From: Rhynchobatus australiae | Lineage: Eukaryota | Direction of reading: 5' to 3' | NCBI GenBank assembly: GCA_034780895.1 | Contig: JAUZTB010000068.1 | Location: forward strand, 32,511,319 to 32,575,318 | DNA: 64,000 bases | Shown here: positions 9,389-56,937 of the stretch, piece by piece | How the letters are laid out: every line of letters starts with the position of its first letter | Numbering within the stretch: position 1 is the stretch's first letter | Position numbers and translations under genes: made by a program | The notes under the pieces: generated by a model | Database searches by the model: none | What the model saw: only the letters and a program-made list of their open reading frames with translations | Told to the model about the DNA's origin: nothing

Positions 9389-9609
9389 GTAAAAAAAAAA
9401 TTTGAAACCCCTCAGCTACTCGGATAGCATCTGCAGAAAGAGAAACTGAGGTAGAAACAGTTAATATTTCCGATCCAAGATCCTTTATCACTTCTGATGA
9501 AGGATCTTCAACATTAAGAGTTAACTCTTTTTCTCTATCCACAGATGCTGCCTGACCTGAGTGTTTCCAGGATCTGCTTTTATTTCAGGTTTCCAACATC
9601 TGCAGTTCA
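9389..9609. mobile_element. Palindromic non-autonomous element built from two inverted Penelope-type terminal repeats
   Basis: Left arm agcatctgcagaaagagaaa...agttaa...aagatcctttatca pairs with right arm tgatgaaggatctt...ttaact...tttctctatccacagatgct. Degenerate 16-bp flanking direct repeat at 9373-9388 and 9610-9625 (13/16). Confidence 0.7.
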
Positions 9610-11859
9610 TGTGTAGGCAACAAAATGCTTTTTGAAGTGTAGATGAGGCCGTGATTTGTTTTCTAAAATTCCACTGCTGTCATTATATGCTATAAACTTT
9701 GATCAACCAACAGAATGTTATATGGAAAAGCATAGTCATAGGAAGACTGATGTTTGTTGATATTCTAAATTTATCAAACAAAAATGTATGGTTGTCTACC
9801 TAGAATGGTTAGTAAATGAGCTTCAGTGTCTCGGAATAATCAACCTCTTAAAAAAAAAACTATTATCAACATCAAGAATCTCTGAATTTTTTGCTCTGAT
9901 TGTCAATCAAATCTTGAGAAGGAGAAAACTGTTGTAATATGACTACTCAGGATAAATCCAAAGAAAGTACAGCTATCCTAAAATACAGGATGCATGTAGC
10001 ACATTGAACTGCTTTTATTACGTTCAGTTCACTGATTTGATCGGTGTTGTACTGAAATACAAGCTAATTGACAGCATGCTTCATAGAAGACTTTTCAATC
10101 TGATGGTGGTATTTGCAAATTACTTACACTTGTACATTAAAGAGTACATTCATTGAAAGATGCAAATTATAACATTGCCTTTCGTCTTAGCTTCAGTTAA
10201 GTATTCTTAAACCTGAATAACCAAGTTGGGATTATTGGTAGGGCTGCATATTTGACATACCTTGTGCTCCTAATGCTTGGATCTCAGTGGGACGTTGCAG
10301 TTTTATGGATTACTCCTATGACAAAAGTGAAGTATTTTTTTTATTTCTGTTTAAAAATTCAGGAATTATTTGCAAAACAGTTCCAAGACTGAATGAGTTA
10401 TACAGGCTTACAGATTCAATTATTAAGTTCCATATGAATCAGATAAGTTTTTCAATANNNNNNNNNNCAGAGGACATAGTTGAACCTCCTACACGCGACC
10501 TGCCTTTTGGGAAGTATTTTTTTCTGCTTTCATTCTTCAGGTGGATCTCTTGTTGCCATTTGGATTTCAGTAAATTTGTCAGGTGAAACTTTGAACCATA
10601 CTTTTTTTCCCCAAAATTTTGTCATTCCAAACTGGAGTACAATTGATCTATAACACCAGCATAATGAATTGCACTAGTTGAATGTAATATATGATGAATT
10701 TGGAATATCGCAACAAGAACATACTTGATGACTTCAGCTTAATTTTTCCTGAGAGAATATCAGCACTGCAACTCTGTTACCCCAGTAAGAAAATTTGAAT
10801 AATTCAGTGATTCTTTTCCACCGTTTTTATATTTGACAATACTAAATGGGAAACTGTAACTGAATAATGTAAGCTTTGATCATATCGTATCTGTTTGTTG
10901 ACTATCCTCTGTAGGAGATTTCTGTCTGCTTTCTGTTTACATGGTCTCTTTTTCCTAAAGCTGAACACTTCATGTGCCGGAGATGTTAGGGCAAGTGTTC
11001 ATCACTCAGTAATGTTTGGCAAAGGATCTGGGAAGCTCTTTAGTTAATGAACAAAAGTTAGAGGATAAGCTATTACTTACAGAACAGCTAAAGATATAAA
11101 ATAAGAGAGCTGAAGTGTATCTTGTGGATGAGCACCTTGCATTCACTTGCAGAAGAGCAACACAGTATCCCTGTCAGAAGCTTTGGATATGTCCAAGCTA
11201 GTAACGTCATAAGTCAAGATGTTTAAATACATAATGCATGACATGTGTTTGGAATTCCTAAACAGCAAGGCTTGGGTTTGGAAACTTCTAGGACACTTCT
11301 CTGCTTTAAAAAGTTGTGCTGCCGTCCCAGCTAATGATGATTAATTTTAAGAAGAAAATAATTTAGAAATCTATTCCATGTGATAAACACTTTGAAGTAT
11401 TTAAATGGGATATTTACTGGTGCTTTGTTAATGCAATACCCTGGTCAGTCATCAATGAAAAAATTACTTGCCTTTTTCTGAATCTGGGGGATTAAGTTGA
11501 ACTGGGCACGTTTCAGATTTTTAAGTTTTTACTGCTTTGTGTTCACAGTGAAAATGTATTCTTTCTAAGAAGATTTGATTTGTCAAAATGACTTTTTTAG
11601 TGCAGAAACGTTGGATTCCATGAAAACAAAAATTCATGCCTAATTCGAGATGTGTATGAGATTCAACATCTTCCATCTGAATTAAAGTATTTTTCATGCT
11701 GGTCATTTGATGGAGTTAAAAGGGCTTGGTTCTCATGTCTGAGTCCTGGAAATGACATGTAAAAGCTAAACTTGGTGTGAAAATATGGAACATGTGTCAT
11801 GATTCTGAGTGTACTGGCAGAAGAAGGATCTTTATTGTATAAGCATAGTTCACAGGAAA

Positions 11860-16025: not shown

Positions 16026-18097
16026 GGTCTGAATTTGTGTTCTCTGCCTTTCTTAATATCCCAGCTTGAAAATAACCAATTCAAGACTTACAGTATTTTC
16101 ATTAAGTGTACACTAAACTTGCATGCCCATAGTGAAAATTTTGCACATAAGAAACAGAATCGCTTATCAGAAATTGTCCTTTAAATACTCTTATTTATAA
16201 GCCTTTGTATTTGGCCCAGAGTCCACTGCAAATGTGTTGCAGATGCATACTCGAGAAGGGTTATAGGCCTGTAAAAACAAGCATCTCTGCAAGCTTGTAG
16301 AGCTGCTCATTCTGGAAGCCACTTCACTCATTTGCAGATTGATCTCTACAGGCTNNNNNNNNNNNNNNNNNNNNNNNNNNNNNNNNNNNNNNNNNNNNNN
16401 NNNNNNNNNNNNNNNNNNNNNNNNNNNNNNNNNNNNNNNNNNNNNNNNNNNNNNTACAGGCTCATTATGAAGTGTAATAAATATTGTGGTTTATAATGTG
16501 TTGATACACTCTTTCTCACCAAATAGATAGCATCAAAGTGGTTTGGAGGATGTGTAAACCCTTTATGTTTAAATGCATTTCTGTAATATGTTTTCACTTC
16601 CAGCCTAGCTGCCTTTGCTTGCATATAGCGCCTTACTATCATTGCTAATATGGAATGTTCAGAAAATATTACTACATCAGAACAGACCAACTTAAACACC
16701 ACAAAATGTCTTAAGAACTTTTGTTTTGGCCTACCAATGGCATAAAAATTCAATGAACTATTGTGTACCAAATGGATTCCTTGCAGAGGCCCCGAGTCAC
16801 AGAATGAAGAGCAGACGGTTATCGCCATCATTCACTTAAGGAGTGGCCATGGTGGATGGTGCCACCTTACTTTTATCTTCTATCTGTAGCGTCCCATCTG
16901 TGTTTATAGAGCTCCCTGTGCACCTCACCAAATTCTTCATGTAAATCCCACTCCATTATTACTACTACCACAAAATGTCCTGATCTGGTTAATGACACAT
17001 ATTTAATTTGTTTCACTAATATTTTATGAAGGAAGATGACCCTTAAAATTTATTTTTGTAAAATCTTGTATTCAATTATCATAGTGTTTATCAATATGTG
17101 ATTATAGGCATATTTTTCTTCATAACCAGGTTATAATCATTTGAAGATTAATTTGGTTGCAACTGTGGAAGACATAAAATTAAAGTGTATGTATCAGTTT
17201 TGAAGACAATAATTGTGAAAGCTGAAAATTATCTGCCATTTGAGTACTTACCTATTTTTACTTATTCCAGCTGTGCAAAGTGTTTGATTGAAATATGTAT
17301 GCCTTATGCAGAGATAATAAATCAGGGATCAGGTTAAAAGATCTATATTAAATAGAGCAGGTACCAATTGAAGAGAAACTCTGGATGAATGTGTAGAAGA
17401 GGAATAAGTGGGTTGTTTGCAGATAAAAGATTGGAAAGTCTCAAGAGACTTTAGGATAAATGCTGCACAATTAATTGATAGTCGGGTATGATGTAATTGG
17501 AACGTGAGAACTGTAGAATGGCTTCAGCATAGAAGGAAGGCACTTAGCCTGTCGAGTCCATATCAGCTCAGTTCAGAAACAATTCAACTAGTCCTACGCC
17601 CTTGTCCTCTTTTCCCATTGCTCTTTGCTTTCACATACCCATTCAGTTCCTTTTTGAATGTTGTAATTGAATCTGCCTCCACAACCTTGGGAAGAGCATT
17701 TCATATCCCTATACCTTAAGTAGTTTTTCCTCACCTCAACTTCTCAGAAGCAAGTGTAATTGATAATTTCAGAAAAGAAGGTTGCTAAAACAAAATGGAG
17801 TTGCATTGGTAGATGTGTAAAGGTAAGTTATTAGCATGAGAGGAAGGAACAAAGTGTGCCTATATGAAGAATGAGATTACAACAGAGTTGGTTACACAAG
17901 GGTTTGAATTGTGGATGACTGCAAAGACCAGTTCCTGGGACCATTAGTTGGTTGGCAAGGACTAAACTGACAGTCAATTTCTTGTGGCGTTATACATGGA
18001 AAATTCAGGTCAGGAATAATATTGGGTGAAGCAGGTTTGTAGTCAAGGTATACAGAGTGTACAGAAGTAGTTTGTCACCAATAAAAGCTCATTCATT

Positions 18098-18987
18098 GGT
18101 GCAACACCTGTCCCTTCACCTCCTTCCTCAGCACTGCCAAAGGACCCAAACTGTCCTTCCGAGGTAAGGCAGAGATCTGCACGTCCTCCACCCCGGTCTG
18201 TTGCATTCAGTACTCACAATGTGGCCTCCTCTATGTCAGCAAGACCAAGCAAAGACTAGGCAACTGTTCAGGTTGCATGTCATTTCAACTCCCATTCCAA
18301 TACCGATCTGTTTGTCCTTGGCCTTCTCCATTGCCGTGCTGACACCAAATTCAGATTAGAAGAACAACACTTCATATTTTACTTGGGTAGCCTACAACCC
18401 AATGGTGTGAACATTTGATTTTTCCAATTTCAGTTAACCCATACCCCTATATTCCTCTCCTTTCCCACTCCCACCAGTCCATTCAGGCTCTGTCTCCCTT
18501 TGTTCATCTTTTCCATCCCTTCTGCCCCAATAACCAGACTTGTTATCTTCCCCCTCTTTTCCCCCCCCCCACCTAATTCCATCTGTCTATCACCCATATA
18601 CTATCCACCTGGGTTTCTTCTCTCTTGGTTCACCTTTCCTATCCCCTCCCCCACCTGGTTCCATGTGTTATTCATTCTTCCCTTATCTGGTTCCATCAAT
18701 CACCTAAAAGCCTCTGTCTCAACCATACTTCTCCCTGACTTGGATCCATCTGCCCGTCATCACCCCGTCATCTGGTTGCACCTATCACTTACCACCTTCT
18801 GTCTTAACCCTCTTTTCACTTCTATATACTGGCTGCCTTTCCTCTGTACACTCAGGCCTGACGTGTGTCTCAACCCAAAATGTTGAACATCCCTTTGCTG
18901 AAAGAACTCCGTGTTAAGCAGCATCTGCAGAGGCAGTTTGTTTCTGTTTCGCGTCAGATGCCAGCATCTTCAGTCTCCTGAGTCTCC
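18098..18987 (+). mobile_element. 5'-truncated Penelope-like retroelement: GIY-YIG endonuclease remnant, pyrimidine-rich 3' region and terminal repeat
   Basis: Frameshifted translation CNTCPFTSFLSTAKGPKLSF / VCCIQYSQCGLLYVSKTKQRLGN / VACHFNSHSNTDLFVLGLLHCRADTKFRLEEQHFIFYLGSLQPNGVNI* is the PLE GIY-YIG C-terminus. Degenerate 14-bp TSD at 18084-18097 and 18988-19001 (12/14). Confidence 0.85.
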
Positions 18988-19438
18988 AAATCTCATTCTT
19001 TCTGATTTTTGATTATATTGCCACCAAGGTATATGCAAATCATTAAATAATTTGACTGAAATGAAGAGGCAGTGACCTAACATAAATGCAAAGAGAAATC
19101 CCGGCTGTAAACCAGAAGGCAATCTTTACCTTTCAGAGTCTTGGAATTGAAAGGGAACTAAAGGGTGACTGACTGCACAGAATACTTTCCATATCAAAGC
19201 CAATATTGGGATTTTTTTTTACACACATCAGATGTTTAAGTTTGTTGATGTTTCTATGTGAGTGTGCGAGAGTGAAATCGTGTTCACCCTGTAATGATCT
19301 TTAATGAAATCTATATTCTCAACCAAAGGTATCGTTTCTAATTAAATTGCAGGATTGCATATATTGCCAGATACTCTTTTGCCCTACAATCCTTTATTGC
19401 AATCAAGGTGAATTATCCTTTTTAATTCACTTCTTAAA

Positions 19439-20919
19439 CGTCGACTGTTCATTTCCCTCCATAGATGCTGCCTGACCTGCTGAGTTCTCCAGCTTCTTGT
19501 GTGTGTTGCTCCAGATTTCCAATATCTGCAGAATCTCTTGTGTCACCACTTTTCTTTGTTTGTTGCTCTCTCTCTGTGAGTGCCCCACAGTTCTGTGACG
19601 AGGTCTTCACTATCCAACCTTTCCTCCATGTTAATTACAAAGAGATAGAGAGAGTGATTCCTTCCTTACCCTGCCTGATATCAGACTATCTTGGACCATT
19701 CCCACTCATTGAAATTCCATCCGAGCAAATTTCCTTTGTGGAAGGGAGACCCTGTAGCTGTGGCTCAGTGCTTCATCCCTTCTCCCATCTACCTTCCTGT
19801 TACACTCACCGGTTCTGGTCCTGGTCTAGGTCCAAAACTCACTCCCCATCCATTGCTGGGGAGAGATTCTTTCCCACCTCGTACACACCCCCACCTGTCT
19901 TCACACCCCAAAATTTACAGGCCCGCTGTGGTCTGGGTGCTACCAGCCAGGCGTCTGGCACCTTTGTTGTCCCTCCATCATACACAGTACACTCAGTACA
20001 CTATTATAGCACCAGTAACCCGGGTTCAATTCCTGCCGCTGTCTGTAAGGAGTTTGTACGTTCTCCCCATGTCTGCGTGAGTTCCCTCTGGGTGCTCCGG
20101 TTTCCTCCCACATTCCAAAGACGTACAGGTTAGGAAGTTGTGGGCGTGCTGTGTTGGCCCCTAAAGCGTGGCGACACTTGCGGGCTGCCCCCCGAACACT
20201 CTACGCAAAAGATGCATTTCACTGTGTGTTTTGATGTAAGTGTGACTAATAAAGATATCTTATCCTGCTCACACCTCCCTCAACCCTGGTGCACAAAACC
20301 AGGGTTGACCTGGCCTGTTTCCCTCTCCTATTAATGCCCTGCAAGCCTTTCCTGGGCTGATCCCTACTCGGGTAGAACCACTGAGTAGAACCCTGTCAGG
20401 TCCTCACTCTGCTCTCAGGCCTCACGCTGATCAGGAGCAAATTTCCCTCTTCACGTTGCAGTAACCCACCACAGAGTGTGCTCCCCACAGTATGGGTCAC
20501 CATGACCTGTCTTTGAATATTAAAGAGAGCTGTGAGTAAACCGGTTAACAACCCACTGGCTTCTTGTCTGGCCCACAGCCTGAGAGACAGGGAATGTCTG
20601 GAACCTGACCCCAGTCAGCTTGTGCCCTATTTGTCAGTCTATTGTAAGTACAGCAGGGGATTCTGGAGGAACTTCTTCAACTACAGAATTACAACAACTT
20701 AAAACCTTCTATCACAAAGGGTAGTCAAGGTAAACAACACAGAAGGAGAAAGTTATCCAAGAATATTCCNNNNNNNNNNNNNNNNNNNNNNNNNNNNNNN
20801 NNNNNNNNNNNNNNNNNNNNNNNNNNNNNNNNNNNNNNNNNNNNNNNNNNNNNNNNNNNNNNNNNNNNNCTTCTTGTGTGTGTTGCTCCAGATTGCCAAT
20901 ATCTGCAGTCTCTCTTGTC
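19439..20919 (+). mobile_element. Composite insertion bounded by two direct Penelope-type terminal repeats, with a perfect 12-bp TSD
   Basis: TCACTTCTTAAA at 19427-19438 and 20920-20931. Repeat blocks 19493-19546 and 20870-20923 are 50/54 identical. The interior is GC-richer and non-coding, with a 100-N gap at 20770-20869. Confidence 0.7.
19997..20264 (+). mobile_element. Young, slightly 5'-truncated V-SINE
   Basis: Pol III B-box gggttcaattcc at 20022-20033, V-domain, retained CpGs, and a 3' end gtgactaataaagatatcttatc. Confidence 0.88.
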
Positions 20920-23900
20920 TCACTTCTTAAAGTGCTTTACCATTTTAGGAGGGGTGTTCTTTCTGTAGGTGTTGCAAGCAAGTTTTTTTTAACACAGATT
21001 TGGCTGTGTATGACCTATTTTATTCAGGGTAAAATGCTTCCAGGAGGGTTGATAACTGCCTAATTACTGGTCTGTCTGGCTATAAATGTGGGGATCCTAA
21101 ATCATGTTTAAATGAGTTGGATATTACATGATATCCCATTTGTAATAACTTTGATTTAGGGAAAATTGTATCTTGAGGAAATAAGAATGAAAAGGACAAT
21201 ACTTGTAACATTTTTGTCACCTATGCAATGGATTTGAATTTGTCATGTACATATTGAAAAGTTGGATAGAGAAAATCTAAAGTTTTATGTTAATATGACT
21301 GCTTCCATGGTGAAATACAATTCCATTTATCCATTGACCACAAAATACTACATTTCACAACATAGGTTTTGTTAGTTTCCTTTTCAGAAGACCATTGCAA
21401 AAGTTGCTAAATCTACAACTTGATCTGGCACAGCAAAATCATCAGAAATTGTGTTAGAAACTCCAAGTGGAAAACAAACGCCTACAATCTAAGATATAGC
21501 ACTGACCATATCTAAGTATTTGATTAAGAGATGTGTACTCGCATTTCAAAAGTTTGAAATATCACCAGTATAATATGCTTGTGAAACTTTTGTCTTTCCA
21601 AAAATAAGATACAAGATGTCCTAATTTGGACTCTGAACAATCTTGAACGCTTTCAATGTTTATTCTATTCAAAACGAGCATTAATGGTGTAAGATTTGAG
21701 CTAAAATAAAACCACNNNNNNNNNNNNNNNNNNNNNNNNNNNNNNNNNNNNNNNNNNNNNNNNNNNNNNNNNNNNNNNNNNNNNNNNNNNNNNNNNNNNN
21801 NNNNNNNNNNNNNNNNNNNNNNNNNNNNNNNNNNNNNNNNNNNNNNNNNNNNNNNNNNNNNNNNNNNNNNNNNNNNNNNNNNNNNNNNNNNNNNNNNNNN
21901 NNNNNNNNNNNNNNNNNNNNNNNNNNNNNNNNNNNNNNNNNNNNNNNNNNNNNNNNNNNNNNNNNNNNNNNNNNNNNNNNNNNNNNNNNNNNNNNNNNNN
22001 NNNNNNNNNNNNNNNNNNNNNNNNNNNNNNNNNNNNNNNNNNNNNNNNNNNNNNNNNNNNNNNNNNNNNNNNNNNNNNNNNNNNNNNNNNNNNNNNNNNN
22101 NNNNNNNNNNNNNNNNNNNNNNNNNNNNNNNNNNNNNNNNNNNNNNNNNNNNNNNNNNNNNNNNNNNNNNNNNNNNNNNNNNNNNNNNNNNNNNNNNNNN
22201 NNNNNNNNNNNNNNNNNNNNNNNNNNNNNNNNNNNNNNNNNNNNNNNNNNNNNNNNNNNNNGAGCAAAATTAGAGGAAAATATAGTGGTTATGTTTCTGG
22301 ACTTGGATCCAGAGACCTGAACTGTTTTGGGGATGTTTAAATTGAACCCAGGTCACTGGAACTGTAAAGCAGCAGCAGCACCAACTGCTGCATCATTTTG
22401 CTGCTCTTAGCTAGTCTGCCTAATATGTGACCCCAGGCTGCTGACTGTTAATTAACTGCTCTCTGAAATAACCTGGCAAGCTACTCAGTTAATGGGACAA
22501 TTAATGACTGATATTAAATGCTGGCCTCACTAACGACATCCACGTCTCATAGAACAGATTGGGAAATCCCCACAAAAATTAATTTTCTGTATAAATGGAT
22601 GATTCCTGAACCTTAGCTTTATTGGTCTCGCCTACACTGGATTTTGCAAAGTTTCCTGCCGTCAACTTCAGTGGGAAAGAATAACAAGCAGCTTGAGGTC
22701 CTTTGTCTTGTTTTTTTTTGGTGTGGTGCCTTTATCAAGTGACTTTATTTTCCACATGAAGGCCAATACTTGAAGTGTCTATTTTGACGGTGGATGGGAC
22801 AGCTAAGCCTGTCTGTCTTCGGCAGACTAAGCCCACTTTCTTAAGCAGGTTTCACTGGATAAACAGTAAGGAACCCCAACATACTTCACTTCTTCCTTTT
22901 TGTCCAAGAAGGCAACTGTAGTGATCAAGCTGAGGAAAGTTACTTTGATATATGTGGAGAATGGAACCAGGGACCTTCTGGTATGATTTAATGTTATCCT
23001 GGACTTGCCCAGTAGGGTAGTGCATAAATAAAAGGTTATCTAATAGTTTAGCACACTTTTGGTTATATGAACTGCATAGATGTAAAGAATAGAAGCATGT
23101 GGATGCCTATTGTTTGATCAAGCATATTTGTTGTTGTTCTGTGATTGAAATGCTCTGTGAACACTTGGCTGCTCAATAGGAATTTGGGGAAATTATTCAA
23201 GATCAGTTTTAATGTTGATTTTATATTCCCTCATTGGATATATTCAAATCTTTATTTGTAGTGTCTAAGTGAAAAATAAGCAAAAAACTAGATACCTAAA
23301 TAAAAAAAATTGTTAGAATTCTGATAGGTCTATTGGTGGAACTTGGGGGAAATAAGTGACAAAAAAGGATAAATTGTGCTGAATGACAAAGTCCATACTT
23401 TTGTAGACTTCATGAAGCAGTATTTATTTGCCCAAATGCCCCCCCCCACCATATCTTTACAAATAAAAAGTTTACTTTTATTATATTGTTTGCTTATGGC
23501 AGCAGATAATTTTAAACTTTTTTTTGTAATTTTATTCCCCAAGCCATGGACTTGCTAAATTAAAAGTAGTTTGATTATTTGCTCCATGAATAGATTACTG
23601 ATTTAATAAACTTTTTTTTGATTTTATAATGGACTTTTCTTTTTTTGTGGACACTTTTATGTTGGTCATTTTGAAAATCAGTGATAGTTCCATTGCCTTC
23701 AGTTCCTAATGGCAAGTCCGTAACAGCAACTAATAATGAAAACTATTTATAATTTTACACCATTTTACGAGCTTGCTCAAAACATATACAAAGATGTCTG
23801 GTTAGAGAAAGTTGGTTGCCTTTGATTCTGCCCTAAACTCAAATTACCAAAGCTTGGTAAATGTTTCAGCTCTTGCAGTTGATATTTATTCTGCATTTTC

Positions 23901-29009: not shown

Positions 29010-31450
29010 GTCCTGTTCAACATGAAAGCCTGGAGAATAGCCAGAGTTCCTTGTTTAAGAAGGGCAATAGAGATAAACTAGGAAATATTGAACCTGGTGA
29101 GCCTTTTATCAGTAGTAGGAACATTATTGGAGAAGGTGCCTAGGGATAGGATTTACTTGCATCTGGAAAAGCATGGATGACTTGAGGACAGTCAGCATGG
29201 CTTTGTGCAGGTAAGGTCATAGAGTTATGCAGCACAGAAACAGGTTCTTCATCCCGACTCCTCCATGCCAACCAATGTGCTAGTCCCANNNNNNNNNNNN
29301 NNNNNNNNNNNNNNNNNNNNNNNNNNNNNNNNNNNNNNNNNNNNNNNNNNNNNNNNNNNNNNNNNNNNNNNNNNNNNNNNNNNNNNNNGTAAGGTCATAG
29401 AGTTATGCAGCACAGAAACAGGTTCTTCAGCCCGACTCCTCCATGCCAACCAATGTGCTAGTCCCATTTTCCTATGTTTGGTCCATCTCCTTCTGAATTT
29501 TTCCCATCCATGTACTTGTCTAAATATATTTTAAACATTGGCAATTGTACATGCCTTTGGCAGCTTGTTGCATATACACACTGCTTCTGTATAGAAAAAC
29601 TTGCCCCTTGGGTCCCCTTTAAATTTTTCCCCTCTTGCCTTAAGCCTATCTCCTTTAGTTTTACACTCCCCTTCCCTGGGGGAAAAAGACTGTGACCATT
29701 CAACTTATCTAAGCCCCTCATAATTTTATAAACCTCCGTACAGTCAGTCATCAGCCTCTGCACTCCAGGGAAAGCAGCCCCAGCCTATCCATTCTCTCCT
29801 TATAACTCAAGCTGCCCAGTCCCAGCAACATCCTTGTAAATCTTTTCTACACCTTTCCAGCTTAGTGAGGTCCTTTCCTAAAGCTAGGCCACCACAACTG
29901 CACACAATACTCCAAAGTGCAGTCTCACCAATGTCTTGTGCAAATGTAACATGACGTCCCAACTCTTGTACTCACTGCCCTAACTGAAGGCAAACATGTC
30001 AAATGCCATCTTCGCCACCCTGTCTGTGTCACCCCTTTGAGGGAACTATGTACTTGTACACCCAAGCGATCTGTTCTACCACGCTGTCCAGGATCCTGCC
30101 ATTTACTATGCACGTCTGGCTATGGTTTAACTTCCTAAAATGCAACACTTCACACTTGTCAGAGTTAAATTCTTTGTCATCCCTTAGCCCACTTTCCCAG
30201 TTGAAGAGCAGACTCAATGGGCCGAATGGCCTAATTCTGCTCCTATGTTTTATGGTCTTAATCCAGATCCTGTTGTATTCTTAGATAACCTTCATTATCC
30301 ACTATACTACCAATTTTAATGTCATCCACAAACTTGCTAACCATGTCTTGCAAAGTTGATTGAGTTTTGACCTTGAGGTGATTATAGATGATTGATGAGG
30401 GTAGGGCAGTGGATGTTTATGTGGACTTCAATGAAGCATTCAACAAGGACTCTCATGATAGACTGATCCAAAAGATTAAGGCACATGGGGAGCACAGACA
30501 CTTTGCAGATTGAGTTCAACATTGGCTTGCCATAGAGAGAGAAGGTAGTGGTGGAGATTCTGACTGGAGGTCTGTGACCAGTGATCTTCTGCAGAGATCA
30601 GTGTTGGGACATCTGTTGTTTGTGATCATATATAAATGATTTGGATGAGAGTGCAGGTGGGCTGATTAGTAAATTTGCAGACATTACAAAAATTGAAGTT
30701 GTGGATATGAGGAAGGTTGTCAAAGGATTCAGCAGGATGTAGGCAAGTTGTAAACGTGTGCAGGGGAATGGCAGATGGAGCTTAATCCAGACAGTTTTAG
30801 TTGTCGCACTTTTGGAGGTCGAATGTAAGAAAAATATACAGTAAGTGGCAGGACCTCATGAGCATTGATGTACAGGTGCAAGTCCATAGCTTCCTGAAAG
30901 TAGTGACATAAGTAAGTAGGGTGGTAAAGAAGGCGTGTGGCATACTTGCCTTTATCAGTCAGGACATTGAGTGTAAAAGTTGGCAAGTCATGTTGCAGCC
31001 GTATGAAACTTTGGTTAGGTCTCATTTGGTGTATTGTATGCAGTTCTTGTTGCTGCATTACAGGAAGGATGTGGAGGCTTTGTAGAGAGTGCAAAAGTGG
31101 TTCACCAGCTTGCTCTCTTGATTAGAGAGTGTTAGCTATAAGGAGAGGCATAGGGCAGATGGTCAGGGTCTTTTTCCCAGGGTGGAGATGTCAGNNNNNN
31201 NNNNNNNNNNNNNNNNNNNNNNNNNNNNNNNNNNNNNNNNNNNNNNNNNNNNNNNNNNNNNNNNNNNNNNNNNNNNNNNNNCAATCAGAGGGTAGTTGGA
31301 ATCTGCAATGAACTGCCTGAGGGGGGTGGCAGAGATATTTAGAATGGTACATGAACAGTCAGGGATGGAGCGATATAAACCATGTGCAGGCAGATAGGAT
31401 TCACTTAAATTGCCATCATGGTCAGCGGGTACATTGTGGGCTGTAAGTCC
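29010..31450 (+). mobile_element. CR1-type LINE RT region (29010-29220 and 30345-31450), split by an antisense CR1
   Basis: cagcatggctttgtgcaggtaaggtcat (QHGFVQ.RS) resumes at 30345 with gtcttgcaaagttgattgagtttt (CL..LIEF). The element continues through SVLGHLLF and SKFAD-like motifs to the 3' tail. Confidence 0.85.
29389..30344 (-). mobile_element. CR1-type LINE 3' portion, nested antisense
   Basis: Minus-strand peptides EFNSDKCEVLHF, LGVQVHSSLK and EVYKIMRGLDKLNGHSLFP, plus a 3' tail at 29389-29470. Confidence 0.9.
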
Positions 31451-35503: not shown

Positions 35504-35624
35504 TCTGATGCAGGGTTTCAACCCAAAACGTCAACAATTCTTTTCCTCCCACAAATGCTGCTCGACCCTCTGAGTTCCTCCAGCAGATTGTTGCTCCAGA
35601 TTCCAGCATCTGCAGTCTCTTGTG
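35504..35624 (+). mobile_element. Solo Penelope-type terminal repeat with a degenerate minimal hammerhead-like motif
   Basis: CTGATGCA-GGGT-TTCA-ACCC-AAAACGTC (35505-35532), then cccacaaatgctgctcgaccctctgagttcctccagca...ccagattccagcatctgcagtctcttgtg. Confidence 0.7.
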
Positions 35625-36515: not shown

Positions 36516-38481
36516 TTTATTAAAATTTTGAATAGCCTGTTGCTCCCAATTTGTGACACATGATCAGTTGATTGCCCTATAAGGCCACAGGTGGGCTGAC
36601 TGTTCCACAGACCAACTAATTATGTCTAAGTAGATTGGTAATGCACTTTGGGATTAGACCATGAGCTTGGATCTGAGTTTGTCTTGCAGAGATGAGACCA
36701 AAGTGCAACAAGAGCAGTTTGCCAAATGCATAATGCGTTTTTAACAGTTGCAGTCATATTTTGTTTGCACCTATGATGAAATTTTTTTTCCAATGTGCCA
36801 GCTGCTCTCAAATTCTATCATTCACTGATCACCTGCAGCACACCCAGCTGCAGAGCCAAACATAACCCATGTTATTAAAACGGATGCTGCTGTTAGCAAA
36901 TGCTAAAGTTGCTTTCATCAAACTGTCTGGATCAAATTTAGCCATGTAACCTTTTAAAATTTAAAAATTAAGCTTTGTTTTTTAAAGAATTTTTAAATTT
37001 TTGGGGTAGCTTTCTTGCACACTCTTCCTGGAATAACTTCTGCCAAAAAATCATTATACTTCAGTGTAGTACAACAATTACACTGTTGTAAAATTTAAAT
37101 TATTTTCAGTCCAAACTATTTTGTGGCTTTTGTGGTAGTTTTCAAAAAATTTTTCTGCTTTTATACCCAGTCTAAACCCTATTGGGAAATGCAGCCATGC
37201 TGCATTAGTTTTTCAAATCCACTGCAAACTATGTAAAATAATATGCAAATCATGTTACCAGTACAAAAGCACTCCTTTCACAATTTTCAAATTGAATGCA
37301 TGTAACCCACAACATTAGAGGTAATTGTTGAAATTGTTATTTTCAAATCTAATAGTTGAAAGACAAAAGATCTTGGAATTTGGCTTCTTAGTGTTTGTGA
37401 CACAGAAGTGCTGGTTTTTGCAATTAAATCTTCTCTGGTGGCATAGGAAGGCAGGCCCACCCCCAAAACTTGGCAGCTAACAAATTGCAGAACACTGATT
37501 TTTAACAGTGTGTAAATGTCACTGCTATTCAGAGACATTTTAAAAATGTTTAACTTTTAATAAATAGTAATTTAGTTTTAAGAAAATGAAATTGATTAAA
37601 ATACCTAATATTGATTATACATAATTTCTAAAAAATTGAAGGAAGAAAATAACGATCCCTTTGCAGCCACTGGGGCATGATCCTGCACCAGATTTAACCT
37701 GGTGCTGAATACAACAGATTCAAGCACATTGGTTGTAATACTGGGTTCTGTTTTTGGACCTCATGGAATCCATGGAGCAAACCAACTAATTCAACCATCA
37801 GAATTCATCATAACCTGCGGTACCTGTCTCCATATTTTTGGCTTTCTTCAAACCTACTCTCATATTGGTGACTTTTTTCCTAAAGGAGAGCTTTCCACCA
37901 GATAGATCACCCTTCTCTGACTAGGGTGTGTATATTCTTGTTAGATAACAGAATTAAGGGCACTGTTTCAATGAAAGGTAAATAGAGTTGACTTTATTAA
38001 ATAGAGTTGACTTTAAAAGTAAATAATGCCCTCCGCCACAGTTTTGTTATATTTTGATTTGACTCTTTCTCCCACCACCTCAGTAAAATTTATGCACAAT
38101 TCTGCCTTCCATACTATAATCCATACCAAATTCTGCCTGCTATATATCCTTAGTGTTTACTGGGGTTAAAGTTGAAGTCCAGCAGTGCCTCAAAGCTAAA
38201 ATTCTCATTCATGTGTTCTAATAATGATACAAGCTTAACTGGCTTTCTCGTTAGCAGAGCTCAGTTAATTTACATAGAGTGCTGCTTGATACTACTGAAT
38301 AAGCAGGAACAGTATCTAACTGACAATGTGAGTAATTTCAGAATAAGCTAATGTTTGTAAATGAATCCCATAATTTTCTGATGCACAAATAGAACAGATC
38401 CCAAATTGACCAGTATCTGGAATATTGTCTGCAAGTAACCCAAGAGTATTTGATGTTATTTATAAATGTAAAATATTGTTC

Positions 38482-39581
38482 GTCGTCTTGGAAGTTTCAT
38501 TTGGCCTGGTATCTACAGCCTTTAGGGGAACATTCCATTATTTTCTTTGCTCTAAGTAAGGGAAATAAAAGCAACCTGATTTTACATCTTCAGCACAGAC
38601 ATATGCATTTTTCTGTTTGTATACCGTATTGAATTCCTTAAATCATTTTAAATGTATAACTCAAGCTCAATGTAACCATCTTTTTTAAAAAAAAAAGTGT
38701 TGATTTAAAAAGTTAATGCAGCTTTCGGGTGAATTGTGATAGATTACCTCAATGTTTCTTAGTACTTTTTAGTTCTTGTATTGAGCTGTTTAACAAAGCT
38801 CAGTGTGTACTCATGATTGAGCTTCCCTTTGGTGATCAGATGGCAGTTGACATTTGATGCTATTGTGAAAATGTTATCAGCAAAGTAATTGCCAACTTGA
38901 ACTACATATACAGCTAGCTAAAGGTTTTTGCTACCATTCATAACTTTGAGCTGGTGAGAGCATTCAATTCATTGTACTGTCATTGCAGAATCAAACCACA
39001 GCTGGAGTGGTTTGTACACTGTCATTTAGTAGATAAGTGGTGTATAAAATTATGAGCTCAACTGTGGGTGGACCCATCCTTAAATATATGTGTTACTCTA
39101 TAAACTCTGCACTGTCTGTGACATTGCTTCTTCCTAAATAAGATGTGCATGTAACTACTGTGCACTTGATAGGTTAAAATTTAGGTGCAGGAGTGGGTAA
39201 TTCATCCTCTGGAAGCTGTTTTGACTTGTCGCTCAACTCTATTTACCTTTCATTGAAACAGTTCCCTTAATTCCGTTATCTAACAAGAATATACAATTTG
39301 TCGCCTTGGAAGTTTCATTTGGCCTGGTATCTACAGCCTTTAGGGGAACATTCCATTATTTTCTTTGCTCTAAGGGAAATAAAAGCAACCTGATTTTACA
39401 TCTTCAGCACAGACATATCCATGTTTCTGTTTGTATACCGTATTGAATTCCTTAAATCATTTTAAATGTATAACTCAAGCTCAATGTAACCATCTTTTTT
39501 AAAAAAAAGTGTTGATTAAAAATTTAATGCAGCTTTCGGGTGAATTGTGATAGATTACCTCAATGTTTCTTAGTACTTTTT
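38482..39581 (+). repeat. Spaced direct duplication of about 285 bp (38482-38770 and 39300-39581)
   Basis: Near-identical copies differing by a few substitutions, one 4-nt indel and A-run length, separated by about 530 bp of unrelated sequence. Confidence 0.95.
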
Positions 39582-40869
39582 ATAAAAGAAAGGAGTAAAT
39601 CCAAATAATTTGAAGTGTTGAGTTTTTAAATTTAGAAATTATTTCTGAATTACGAGCAGTTCTACTTTTTCACACTTCAGCACACTTCTCAGCCAACTAT
39701 ATATTTAGAATCCCTTTTGTTTTGTTTAAACTTGATTTTCTTTTGGAATTAATAATTAGTGGGGCACAGAAAATTACTATTATTGAAATGAGCTGGCTGA
39801 AATATTGCTGCTGGTAGATTCCATCTGTCCACAGTGAGTGCTTTAGATATTCTTTAGTTATGCTTAATTTTGTCTAGATCTGTCTAAACTATATTTGTGC
39901 TAGCGATGAACTCAATTTAGCCTGTAATTTTGCTATTTTTGTCCCATTGAATTGGTTCTGCATGACTGGAGTCTGTGGATTAGTCAGTCTATTGTGCATT
40001 CACTAGTAATTAGCAATCTATTCCCAGTAAAACAAAGTTGTTGCAGTTGCAGACTTTTAAGTATGTTGTCTCGCTACTGTGTAACAAGTGAATGTTTCTT
40101 TGGAAAAGTGATGGGTCCAGGTGAGCTGGTTGTTAATTACAAAATGTAAATTCATGAATATAGTTTTTATTAATATAGAAAGTAATGTTGGGAAAGAGGC
40201 AAGAAATTTGCAGCTAAAGCCTATGCATTCATGTAAAGCAGCTTATCTGTGCCTGTATGCAGTAAGATCTAGACAACACTCAGTCACAGGCTGATAATTA
40301 ACAAGTAATGTAGAAATATAATGGCATAGTAGTAGGCCATTCAGCCCATTGAGTCTAGTAGAGAAATTATGGGATGTGCCCTTTGGTTTTTGAGCCTGCT
40401 AATTGAAAGGGTTTCCATCTTTTTTTTAATCTTATCTAAACTAGTCCTGATCTTGTAGTTCTATTAAATGCACTTGCGATGTTTTCTCCAAGGCAAACAA
40501 CCTCAATGTCTCCAGTCTAGCCTTGTCACTGAAATTCCTCATCCTCAGAACTACTCTGATAATTATCAATCTTTTCTGCACATTCTCTAGGAGCATCATA
40601 TCAGTGGGACATGATAATCCAGTTGTGGCCTAGCCAGTAAATTGTGCAGGTTTCACACAACTTCCCTACCTTTGTATTCTATATCTCTGATGAATTCTAC
40701 GATCTCATGCTTTAGCAGCCACTCTTTCAACATACCTTACCACTTTAAAATACCTGTGCACATGTGCATGCAAGTGCCTATATTCCTGCATGACCTTTAG
40801 TCTGTCGTCTTGCCTTGTTCTTTCTGTGATAGGGTAACACTTCAAGTTTTTTTTCCCATGTTAAATTAG

Positions 40870-41545
40870 CAGGTAACCACTTTGCTAAGCACCTGTGCTC
40901 CGTCTGCCATCGCCATCTGGACCTCCAGGTTGCTAGCTATTTCAGATTTTCCCCCTCCGTTCACACACTGACCGTCAGCCCTTGGTCTCCTCCACTGCCA
41001 GGGTGAGGTCAAACACAGACTAGAGGAAAACCAAAGTCATTCCAGCAGCAGCAGACATTTAAGTGGGTTTTTGCAGCAGCTTTTATAAGCACCTCATAGT
41101 CCACCTGGGTGCTCTATAACCTGACGGCATGAACAACCCTCCTCCTTACCGTCTAGTATCTTTACCTGCCTACTCCATCTGCCCATCACCCCTCAACACT
41201 CCTTCACTGGGACCCTCTCCCCATTGATCCCATCTTCCCACCCCACCTCCCTTATTTGGTTCCATGCTCCACATTCCTTTCCTGTCAGATTTCATTGTCT
41301 GCAGCTCTTTGTTGCCTCCACCTATCGCCTCCCTCACTGTCTCCACCCTTCTCTCTCCCACCTGACTCCATCTGCCAATCACCCTTCCTCCCCTGGATCC
41401 ACCTATCATTGTCAGCTCTTGCCCCACCCCTCACCCTCTCCTCTTCATACTGGCCATCTCCCCTCTACCCAAGATGTCGACTGTTGATTTCCCTCTACAG
41501 ATGCTGCCTGATCTGCTGAGTTCTTCCAGTAGTTTTTGTTATTGG
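40870..41545 (+). mobile_element. Second 5'-truncated Penelope-like element remnant
   Basis: Translates to LGLLHCQGEVKHRLEE ... HLIVHLGAL*PDGMN (GIY-YIG C-terminus), then a pyrimidine-rich tract and the terminal repeat gtcgactgttgatttccctctacagatgctgcctgatctgctgagttc. Confidence 0.8.
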
Positions 41546-56841: not shown

Positions 56842-56937
56842 ATGAACCGCCCAGCCCCAGTAGAAATATGTTCCGAGAGTATGAGATTTCTCATCACACA
56901 CAACCCAACTGATGCTACTCTCAACAAGTTCACAGAG
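56842..56937 (+). CDS. PTP4A2: PRL-2 protein tyrosine phosphatase type IVA 2, first coding exon (codons 1-32)
   Basis: ATG at 56842 in good context (gccacaATG) translates to [32 protein letters not shown], followed by a GT donor at 56938 (phase 0, 96 nt). This is the PRL N-terminus. Absence of the MAR extension of PRL-1/PRL-3 and the presence of NKFTE point to PRL-2. Too short for the supplied ORF track. Confidence 0.95.

Follow-up and report, generated by a model that had tools for sequence, protein, structure and literature searches.

Capture of unrelated DNA between the terminal repeats (pLTRs) of Penelope-like elements (PLEs) is described in the rotifer Adineta vaga. In that animal an intron-containing NRPS gene lies between pLTRs within an 8-bp target-site duplication (TSD) and has an allelic empty site, Pen1 spacers measure 0.9–1.5 kb, and a few non-coding captures between solo pLTRs are reported (PMC3846280). 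For the anole element PAc, reverse transcription starts inside the RNA, 111–118 nt into the open reading frame (ORF) that begins in the ribozyme. The study describes cutting of AT-rich DNA in vitro, with ribozyme cleavage unneeded and no RNA ends seen at the cleavage site (PMC11167929). A third related system, the animal retrozymes, consists of tandem units of 51–972 bp, each with a complete type-I hammerhead; the units average 363 bp in the sole chondrichthyan examined (bioRxiv 10.64898/2026.07.22.740005). Here, a locus resembling the first of these systems was analyzed in a stretch of 64,000 nucleotides (the window) from the Rhynchobatus australiae contig JAUZTB010000068.1. Two direct repeats, putatively of the Penelope type, enclose about 1.2 kb of unrelated DNA within a single TSD. 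The original prediction had proposed that the entire unit of 1.5 kb moved as one, either as a retrozyme-like non-autonomous element or as host DNA transduced between Penelope termini. The underlying observation was confirmed; the interpretation as movement of a whole unit is undecided and leans toward an assembly mis-join around an ordinary insertion. The parts of the locus, in window coordinates, are as follows.

19427 to 19438, + strand: left copy of the TSD, 12 bp; its last three bases, AAA, may be microhomology with the element under the hammerhead motif layout that we assume.
19436 to 19447, + strand: putative 3' remnant of a minimal type-I hammerhead motif, identified from sequence (concept from PMC4209133).
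19439 to 19544, + strand: left terminal repeat, 106 bp, presumably Penelope-type; lacks the CUGAUGA core and helix II; the CpGs at its start are intact and it looks young.
19545 to 19989, no strand assigned: interior part A, GC 0.50, without a copy elsewhere in the window; contains a long + frame without a protein homologue.
19990 to 20264 (ends approximate), + strand: repeat resembling a short interspersed element (SINE), matching window copies at 74–87%, for example 721 to 811.
20265 to 20769, no strand assigned: interior part C, GC 0.49, with two GTRAGT donor-like motifs; ends at the gap without repeat sequence.
20770 to 20869, no strand assigned: gap of 100 N, likely a placeholder for an unsized join.
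20870 to 20921, + strand: right terminal repeat, visible 3' half; its last two bases overlap the TSD.
20920 to 20931, + strand: right copy of the TSD, 12 bp, assigned from the sequence match and a chance estimate.

The predicted perfect TSD was found as described: TCACTTCTTAAA occurs exactly twice in the window, at 19427 to 19438 and 20920 to 20931, and the match does not extend on either side. With 5 nt of slack allowed at both ends, a 12-bp duplication has a chance of about 2.5e-5. Of 3000 position pairs drawn at random, none gave a 12-base match, and the best result, 11 bases, came up once. Because the first two bases, TC, also fit the repeat end and the last three, AAA, fit the assumed ribozyme motif, the unambiguous duplication is 7–12 bp; counting only the 7-bp core, the chance is 3e-3. 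From the TSD it follows that the locus is bounded by a single insertion event, but not that the interior was part of that event, because a solo insertion with a left contig running into the flank of another copy would look alike.

The repeats were compared over 19493 to 19546 and 20870 to 20923. The predicted identity of 50/54 was reproduced, although four of those bases lie in the right 12-mer and the match outside it is 46/50. All four differences are transversions (T/G at 19518/20895, A/T at 19532/20909, A/C at 19533/20910, and G/C at 19542/20919); they fall inside 25 bases, and three of them sit in the 11 bases that directly precede the 12-mer. Despite these differences the TSD is perfect and both CpGs at the start of the left repeat are intact. 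The clustered transversions, next to such well preserved sequence, suggest two distinct genomic copies of one subfamily and fit one template copied twice and aged less well. Two variants are common to both repeats and absent from the seven other aligned family copies of the window, as had been noticed originally, but these copies are more decayed (BLAST identity 74–78%, and 91% over 54 bp for one) and do not show the variants to be private to the locus. The right repeat is visible as its 3' half only, beginning at 20870, the first base after the gap. Its first 25 bases equal 19493 to 19517, and the first difference from the left repeat follows directly. The distance from repeat to repeat is 1377 with the nominal gap and at least 1277 without it. 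Taken alone, the left repeat has no duplication of its own of 7 bp or more, and it showed no stable fold (z +1.04).

The repeat belongs to a family that is well represented in the window, with six further BLAST matches of 54–108 bp; four of the seven aligned copies reach the same 3' segment. In a TSD scan of four other family copies, one had no 7-mer, two had single 7-mers, and the 9-mer of the fourth was internal to the repeat. The pattern expected of a pLTR, scattered and mostly truncated copies that have their 3' end in common together with a variable TSD, is apparent, the TSD of the present locus being 12 bp. The main local support for the Penelope label is a longer copy upstream of the locus.

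18090 to 18985 (ends approximate), + strand: older decayed copy of the repeat family, outside the insertion, in which a GIY-YIG-like remnant is followed first by a pyrimidine-rich stretch and then by a degenerate terminal.

The GIY-YIG-like remnant of this copy gave, as a lead, an atlas score of 0.90 to a cluster in which 12% of the members carry PF01541; Pfam matched none of the four frames searched from the longer family copies. Like Penelope/Poseidon-type pLTRs, their 5'-truncated solo copies and PAc, the repeat is short, has an apparent minimal-hammerhead remnant, ends at a fixed 3' position some 100 nt beyond the motif, lies in an AT-rich target and is present in many truncated copies (PMC11167929, PMC8557442, PMC4209133). 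Unlike those elements, no reverse transcriptase (RT) or endonuclease gene is visible at the locus and the ribozyme core is missing. The fixed 3' end of the family fits the internal initiation seen in the anole work (PMC11167929). Overall, the Penelope label is well supported by layout and unproven. Within the same family, 18090 to 18985 and 40890 to 41530 are two longer decayed copies, both having pyrimidine-rich stretches as well as GIY-YIG-like remnants; the copy at 40890 to 41530 has lost its ribozyme core through an internal deletion. At 9420 to 9612, two copies of an older terminal repeat from the family appear by eye to form an inverted pair, head to head, a layout reported for PLEs.

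The gap at 20770 to 20869 was compared with the other gaps of the window. There are 19 in total, five of them exactly 100 N long, whereas others, of 36 and 87 bases, have sizes of their own. For the other four 100-N gaps, the flanks overlap in two (by 8 bp, and by 78 bp with one mismatch) and do not overlap in the remaining two. Because two such gaps have overlapping flanks, 100-N gaps are likely placeholders that may mean a zero or even negative distance. At the locus, the right contig begins inside the repeat and the left contig ends in non-repeat DNA. No piece of the 5' half of the repeat was found at the left contig end, and this end had no match to the longer family copies of the window. 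Concerning the two gaps with overlaps, the 78 bp on both sides of the one at 29211 to 29466 have a central mismatch and are likely a false duplication at an unmerged variant, and the 8-base overlap at 16347 to 16462 indicates that those two contigs are probably adjacent.

The reading that we favor, and which we consider evenly balanced between right and wrong, is a single 5'-truncated Penelope-type insertion of about 106 bp with a 12-bp TSD, combined with an assembly error in which a contig passed via the repeat into a different locus. The GIY-YIG endonuclease of the element would have cut an AT-rich site, and reverse transcription would have begun inside the RNA at the usual 3' end of the family, as it does in vitro for the anole element. 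Copying would have halted about 106 nt on, a 3-base microhomology would have annealed, and fill-in would have left the duplication. In the assembly, the left contig would have entered the repeat from its true flank, exited via a near-identical copy elsewhere, and continued for 1.2 kb; the interior would then be sequence that flanks some other member of the subfamily. The right contig would consist of the true 3' half and its flank, and scaffolding would have joined both contigs with a 100-N placeholder. The duplication, the repeats, the gap and the foreign base composition are observed directly, while the family label, the steps of the insertion and the mis-join are inferred.

Several observations argue for the mis-join: the two halves are linked by the 100-N gap alone, the right contig starts in the repeat while the left contig lacks its 5' half, the clustered differences between the repeats fit two different copies, and the GC content of the interior is foreign to the flanks. 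The reading accounts for all of these features and for the shared variants as well, because a hop between copies needs a near-identical partner. The short copies ending near the ribozyme motif, common in the window, also speak for it. Chimeric contigs and false duplications arise in draft assemblies at repeats next to gaps. The locus has in common with them the duplicate sequence on both sides of a scaffold gap, the contig start in a repeat, and the foreign contig end. Unlike the other 100-N gaps of the window, with their overlaps of 8 and 78 bp, the run-off here would be longer, at 1.2 kb. Moreover, short-read assemblies are known to have difficulty with complex PLE insertions (PMC8557442).

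Other observations weigh against a mis-join. Three of the 100-N gaps lie in sequence without a repeat match at the ends, so contigs also stop in ordinary DNA, and two (14809 and 61761) are without flank overlap. The left contig, 16455 to 20769, crosses the repeat-interior junction without an N, and a repeat of 106 bp is short enough for read pairs to resolve. A real insertion that was scaffolded against a relative without it would presumably also receive a 100-N join. The TSD-like start of the interior, its GC richness, and a slight excess of splice-like motifs would suit a real transcript-derived insert, and pLTR-framed capture has a documented precedent (PMC3846280). The weights given to this and to the other readings are judgements and were not computed. 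If the favored reading is true, the locus is an ordinary short retroelement insertion, and it carries a warning that a perfect TSD with two terminal repeats can arise by mis-join when one junction sits in a gap.

The strongest competing explanation, plausible and in our estimate somewhat less probable than an assembly error, although in this sequence it would look no different, is a real Penelope-mediated capture of host DNA between termini, in which at least 1.5 kb was inserted with one TSD. The RT would have started in one terminal-repeat RNA and then copied an unspliced transcript reading from another family copy into GC-rich host DNA; variants of this route are a template jump or the reading of a donor stretch that lay between two copies. 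The arrangement expected from such an event, in which unrelated DNA is framed by two direct pLTRs inside a single TSD, is apparent in the sequence as assembled. The one perfect TSD around both repeats, a left repeat that lacks a separate duplication of at least 7 bp, and the two variants common to both repeats are consistent with capture. However, it needs the whole 5' half of the right repeat to lie in the sole unseen part of the locus, and the differences between the repeats are poorly explained by neutral aging. Neither a donor locus nor a second copy nor an empty site has come to light, with no genome-wide search made for them.

The base composition of the interior is consistent with capture as well. 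As the original prediction had it, the interior is GC-richer than its surroundings: outside the SINE-like repeat, GC is 0.50 and 0.49 compared with 0.34 and 0.33 in the flanks, which places it in the top ~1% of equal-sized windows elsewhere in the stretch. A BLAST search of the 64 kb found no second copy of the interior, except through the SINE-like part. This repeat, pointed out originally, matches window copies at 74–87%, and V-SINE is the name that we presume for it. The start of the interior resembles the TSD, with seven of the first nine bases matching, two of them contributed by the repeat. Counted post hoc, the + strand of the interior has three donor-like and two acceptor-like motifs in 949 bp, compared with 0.34 and 0.45 per kb elsewhere. 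The donor-like excess favors capture, but the minus strand also has two donor-like motifs, together with one acceptor-like motif (again post hoc), and no protein match was obtained from the interior. Two exon-like pieces of interior part C were considered as parts of a spliced gene and rejected, as no single open frame resulted by eye on joining them.

The longest N-free stop-free stretch in the window is a + frame of 222 codons at 19465 to 20133, which begins at an ATG inside the left repeat. Its length was reached in 0.6% of 1000 base shuffles. It was rejected as a gene, since it spans the repeat into the SINE-like part. Protein searches covered 175 of the 222 codons, in libraries that may hold little from this animal and with no positive control. 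With the first 175 codons or with codons 29–175, none of 11 candidates in one search and not the single candidate in another was a homologue. These codons also had no match among 1.84 billion representatives and none in the atlas; one PDB match (E 0.87) was taken as chance. The minus frame across the repeat-interior junction gave no candidate homologue. Nine stop-free interior frames outside the SINE-like repeat matched no Pfam family and contained no RT or endonuclease ORF, in line with the earlier statement that the visible interior has no recognizable gene of either type. The blank protein searches carry no information on the repeat-interior junction.

Nucleotide searches beyond the window were performed with motifs from the locus and with sampled words. 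The interior motif had no match in the metagenome collection, and the repeat motif had none in viral contigs. Six metagenome loci and three genome loci matched over 21–22 bases only, in DNA of 59–69% GC, and were taken as chance; these pattern scans yielded no locus from an animal. Run X15 contains 0.81 of 237 sampled words of 18990 to 21350, whereas the other 15 of the 16 listed runs stayed under half (0.05–0.29) and no conclusion on the locus is drawn from them. Of the possible words, 40% come from the non-SINE interior, and at least ~53% of these would be in X15 if sampling was even. Because at least this share of its words is present, the interior appears to be DNA of run X15 and not invented, which also suits capture. 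However, X15 may be the very sample that was assembled, and the word share says nothing on the junctions.

The closest precedents for capture are the Pen3a-NRPS and Pen1 cases of Adineta vaga, with which the locus shares two direct terminal repeats, unrelated DNA of similar length, and one TSD; unrelated DNA between solo pLTRs with TSDs is also described there (PMC3846280). In the rotifer, the empty site is found on the allelic scaffold, and the NRPS case has a third, inverted pLTR and a recognizable gene. Unlike these cases, the present locus is known from assembled sequence, and the gap in the assembly coincides with its second junction. Searches confined to open-licence PMC and bioRxiv papers turned up no example of cargo framed by pLTRs in a vertebrate. 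It is tentatively proposed that a vertebrate Penelope-type element could move unrelated, unspliced host DNA in trans, that some 106 bp of terminal sequence might suffice in cis even though the ribozyme is not intact, and that the enzyme might jump between terminal-bearing RNAs and place more than 1.2 kb of GC-rich host sequence in one TSD. If this is true, the locus would be a vertebrate example of the process described in Adineta vaga, and cartilaginous fishes, rich in such termini, would redistribute host DNA, introns included, in a way that until now has been demonstrated in a rotifer only. It would also be a natural test of the cis-required terminal sequence and of the role of the ribozyme, both open after the anole work in vitro. 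Under either of the two main readings, the kind of event is already known.

An ectopic gap repair is quite unlikely. In this explanation, a solo insertion would later have been broken and repaired from a family copy by synthesis-dependent copying, which would have imported the 3' end and flank of that copy. The layout would be the same as after a mis-join, probably including a left repeat with the 3' end of another copy and a 5'-truncated right repeat. There is no direct evidence for such a repair, and one would expect assembly errors at repeats to be more frequent than events of this type.

Very unlikely, too, is a full-length or internally deleted Penelope element (pLTR-ORF-pLTR), of which the interior would be the 5' region and whose RT/endonuclease gene would be hidden in the gap. 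Two direct pLTRs with a TSD are the standard layout of such an element (PMC3846280, PMC8557442), and the nominal 100 N of the gap need not be its true size. Against it, the tested interior frames match no Pfam family or protein, the interior contains a SINE-like repeat, and unlike a high-copy element, the interior is present at a high share in few runs (above half in one of the 16 listed).

The retrozyme branch of the original prediction found no support. A family of non-autonomous units of 1.3–1.4 kb that move via ribozyme-cut, possibly circular RNA would explain the shared variants and the TSD-like start of the interior, yet we regard it as highly improbable. Under the motif layout that we adopt, cleavage would fall between 19442 and 19443. 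The junction of the left repeat lies 4 nt 5' of this inferred site, next to three A's that it has in common with the target. The repeat start thus is near the putative GUC cleavage triplet, as had been pointed out, but not at it, and a truncation with microhomology explains it better than cleavage by a ribozyme would. The left repeat carries the last part of the hammerhead motif only. In the whole window, the exact pattern of a complete core gave no match, and Rfam gave none at the gathering score; degenerate cores are visible in two copies, one near 9494 and one near 35505, the latter having a 4-bp stem. The repeat scan revealed no tandem array at the locus.

Non-LTR (non-long terminal repeat, animal) retrozymes have in common with the locus that they are non-coding, related to PLE termini, and flanked by a TSD of >4 bp (PMC7229834; bioRxiv 10.64898/2026.07.22.740005). 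They derive from PLE termini and are present in the one chondrichthyan covered by the preprint, which describes tandem units of 51–972 bp with a complete type-I hammerhead and usually <50% GC (bioRxiv 10.64898/2026.07.22.740005). Unlike those multi-copy units of roughly 50–970 bp, the visible DNA has neither a complete ribozyme nor an array, and its unit of 1.3 kb or more is longer. In the anole study, moreover, cleavage was unneeded and no RNA ends were observed at the cleavage site (PMC11167929). Finally, it is hardly credible that two insertions entered resident DNA independently and that the 12-mer arose by chance: the family is abundant in the window and the repeats look like different copies, but the chance of the duplication is only ~2.5e-5 (3e-3 for the 7-bp core alone), and the GC of the interior is unlike that of the flanks.

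A coding feature of the wider window gives the locus its context.

56842 to 56937, + strand: coding exon that contains the beginning of PTP4A2 (matching PTP4A2 chains at E 1.8e-13), ~36 kb downstream of the locus.

Two further stretches were recorded. Shortly after the locus, 21380 to 21500 follows a strong acceptor-like site and, judged by eye, may be an untranslated exon. At 37929 to 39582 there is a gap-free local rearrangement with a 293-bp direct duplicate (38479 to 38771 and 39297 to 39582, 95.9%). The copy at 39297 to 39582 is directly preceded by an inverted 63-bp copy of 37929 to 37991 (97%), an arrangement that looks like a replication template-switch.

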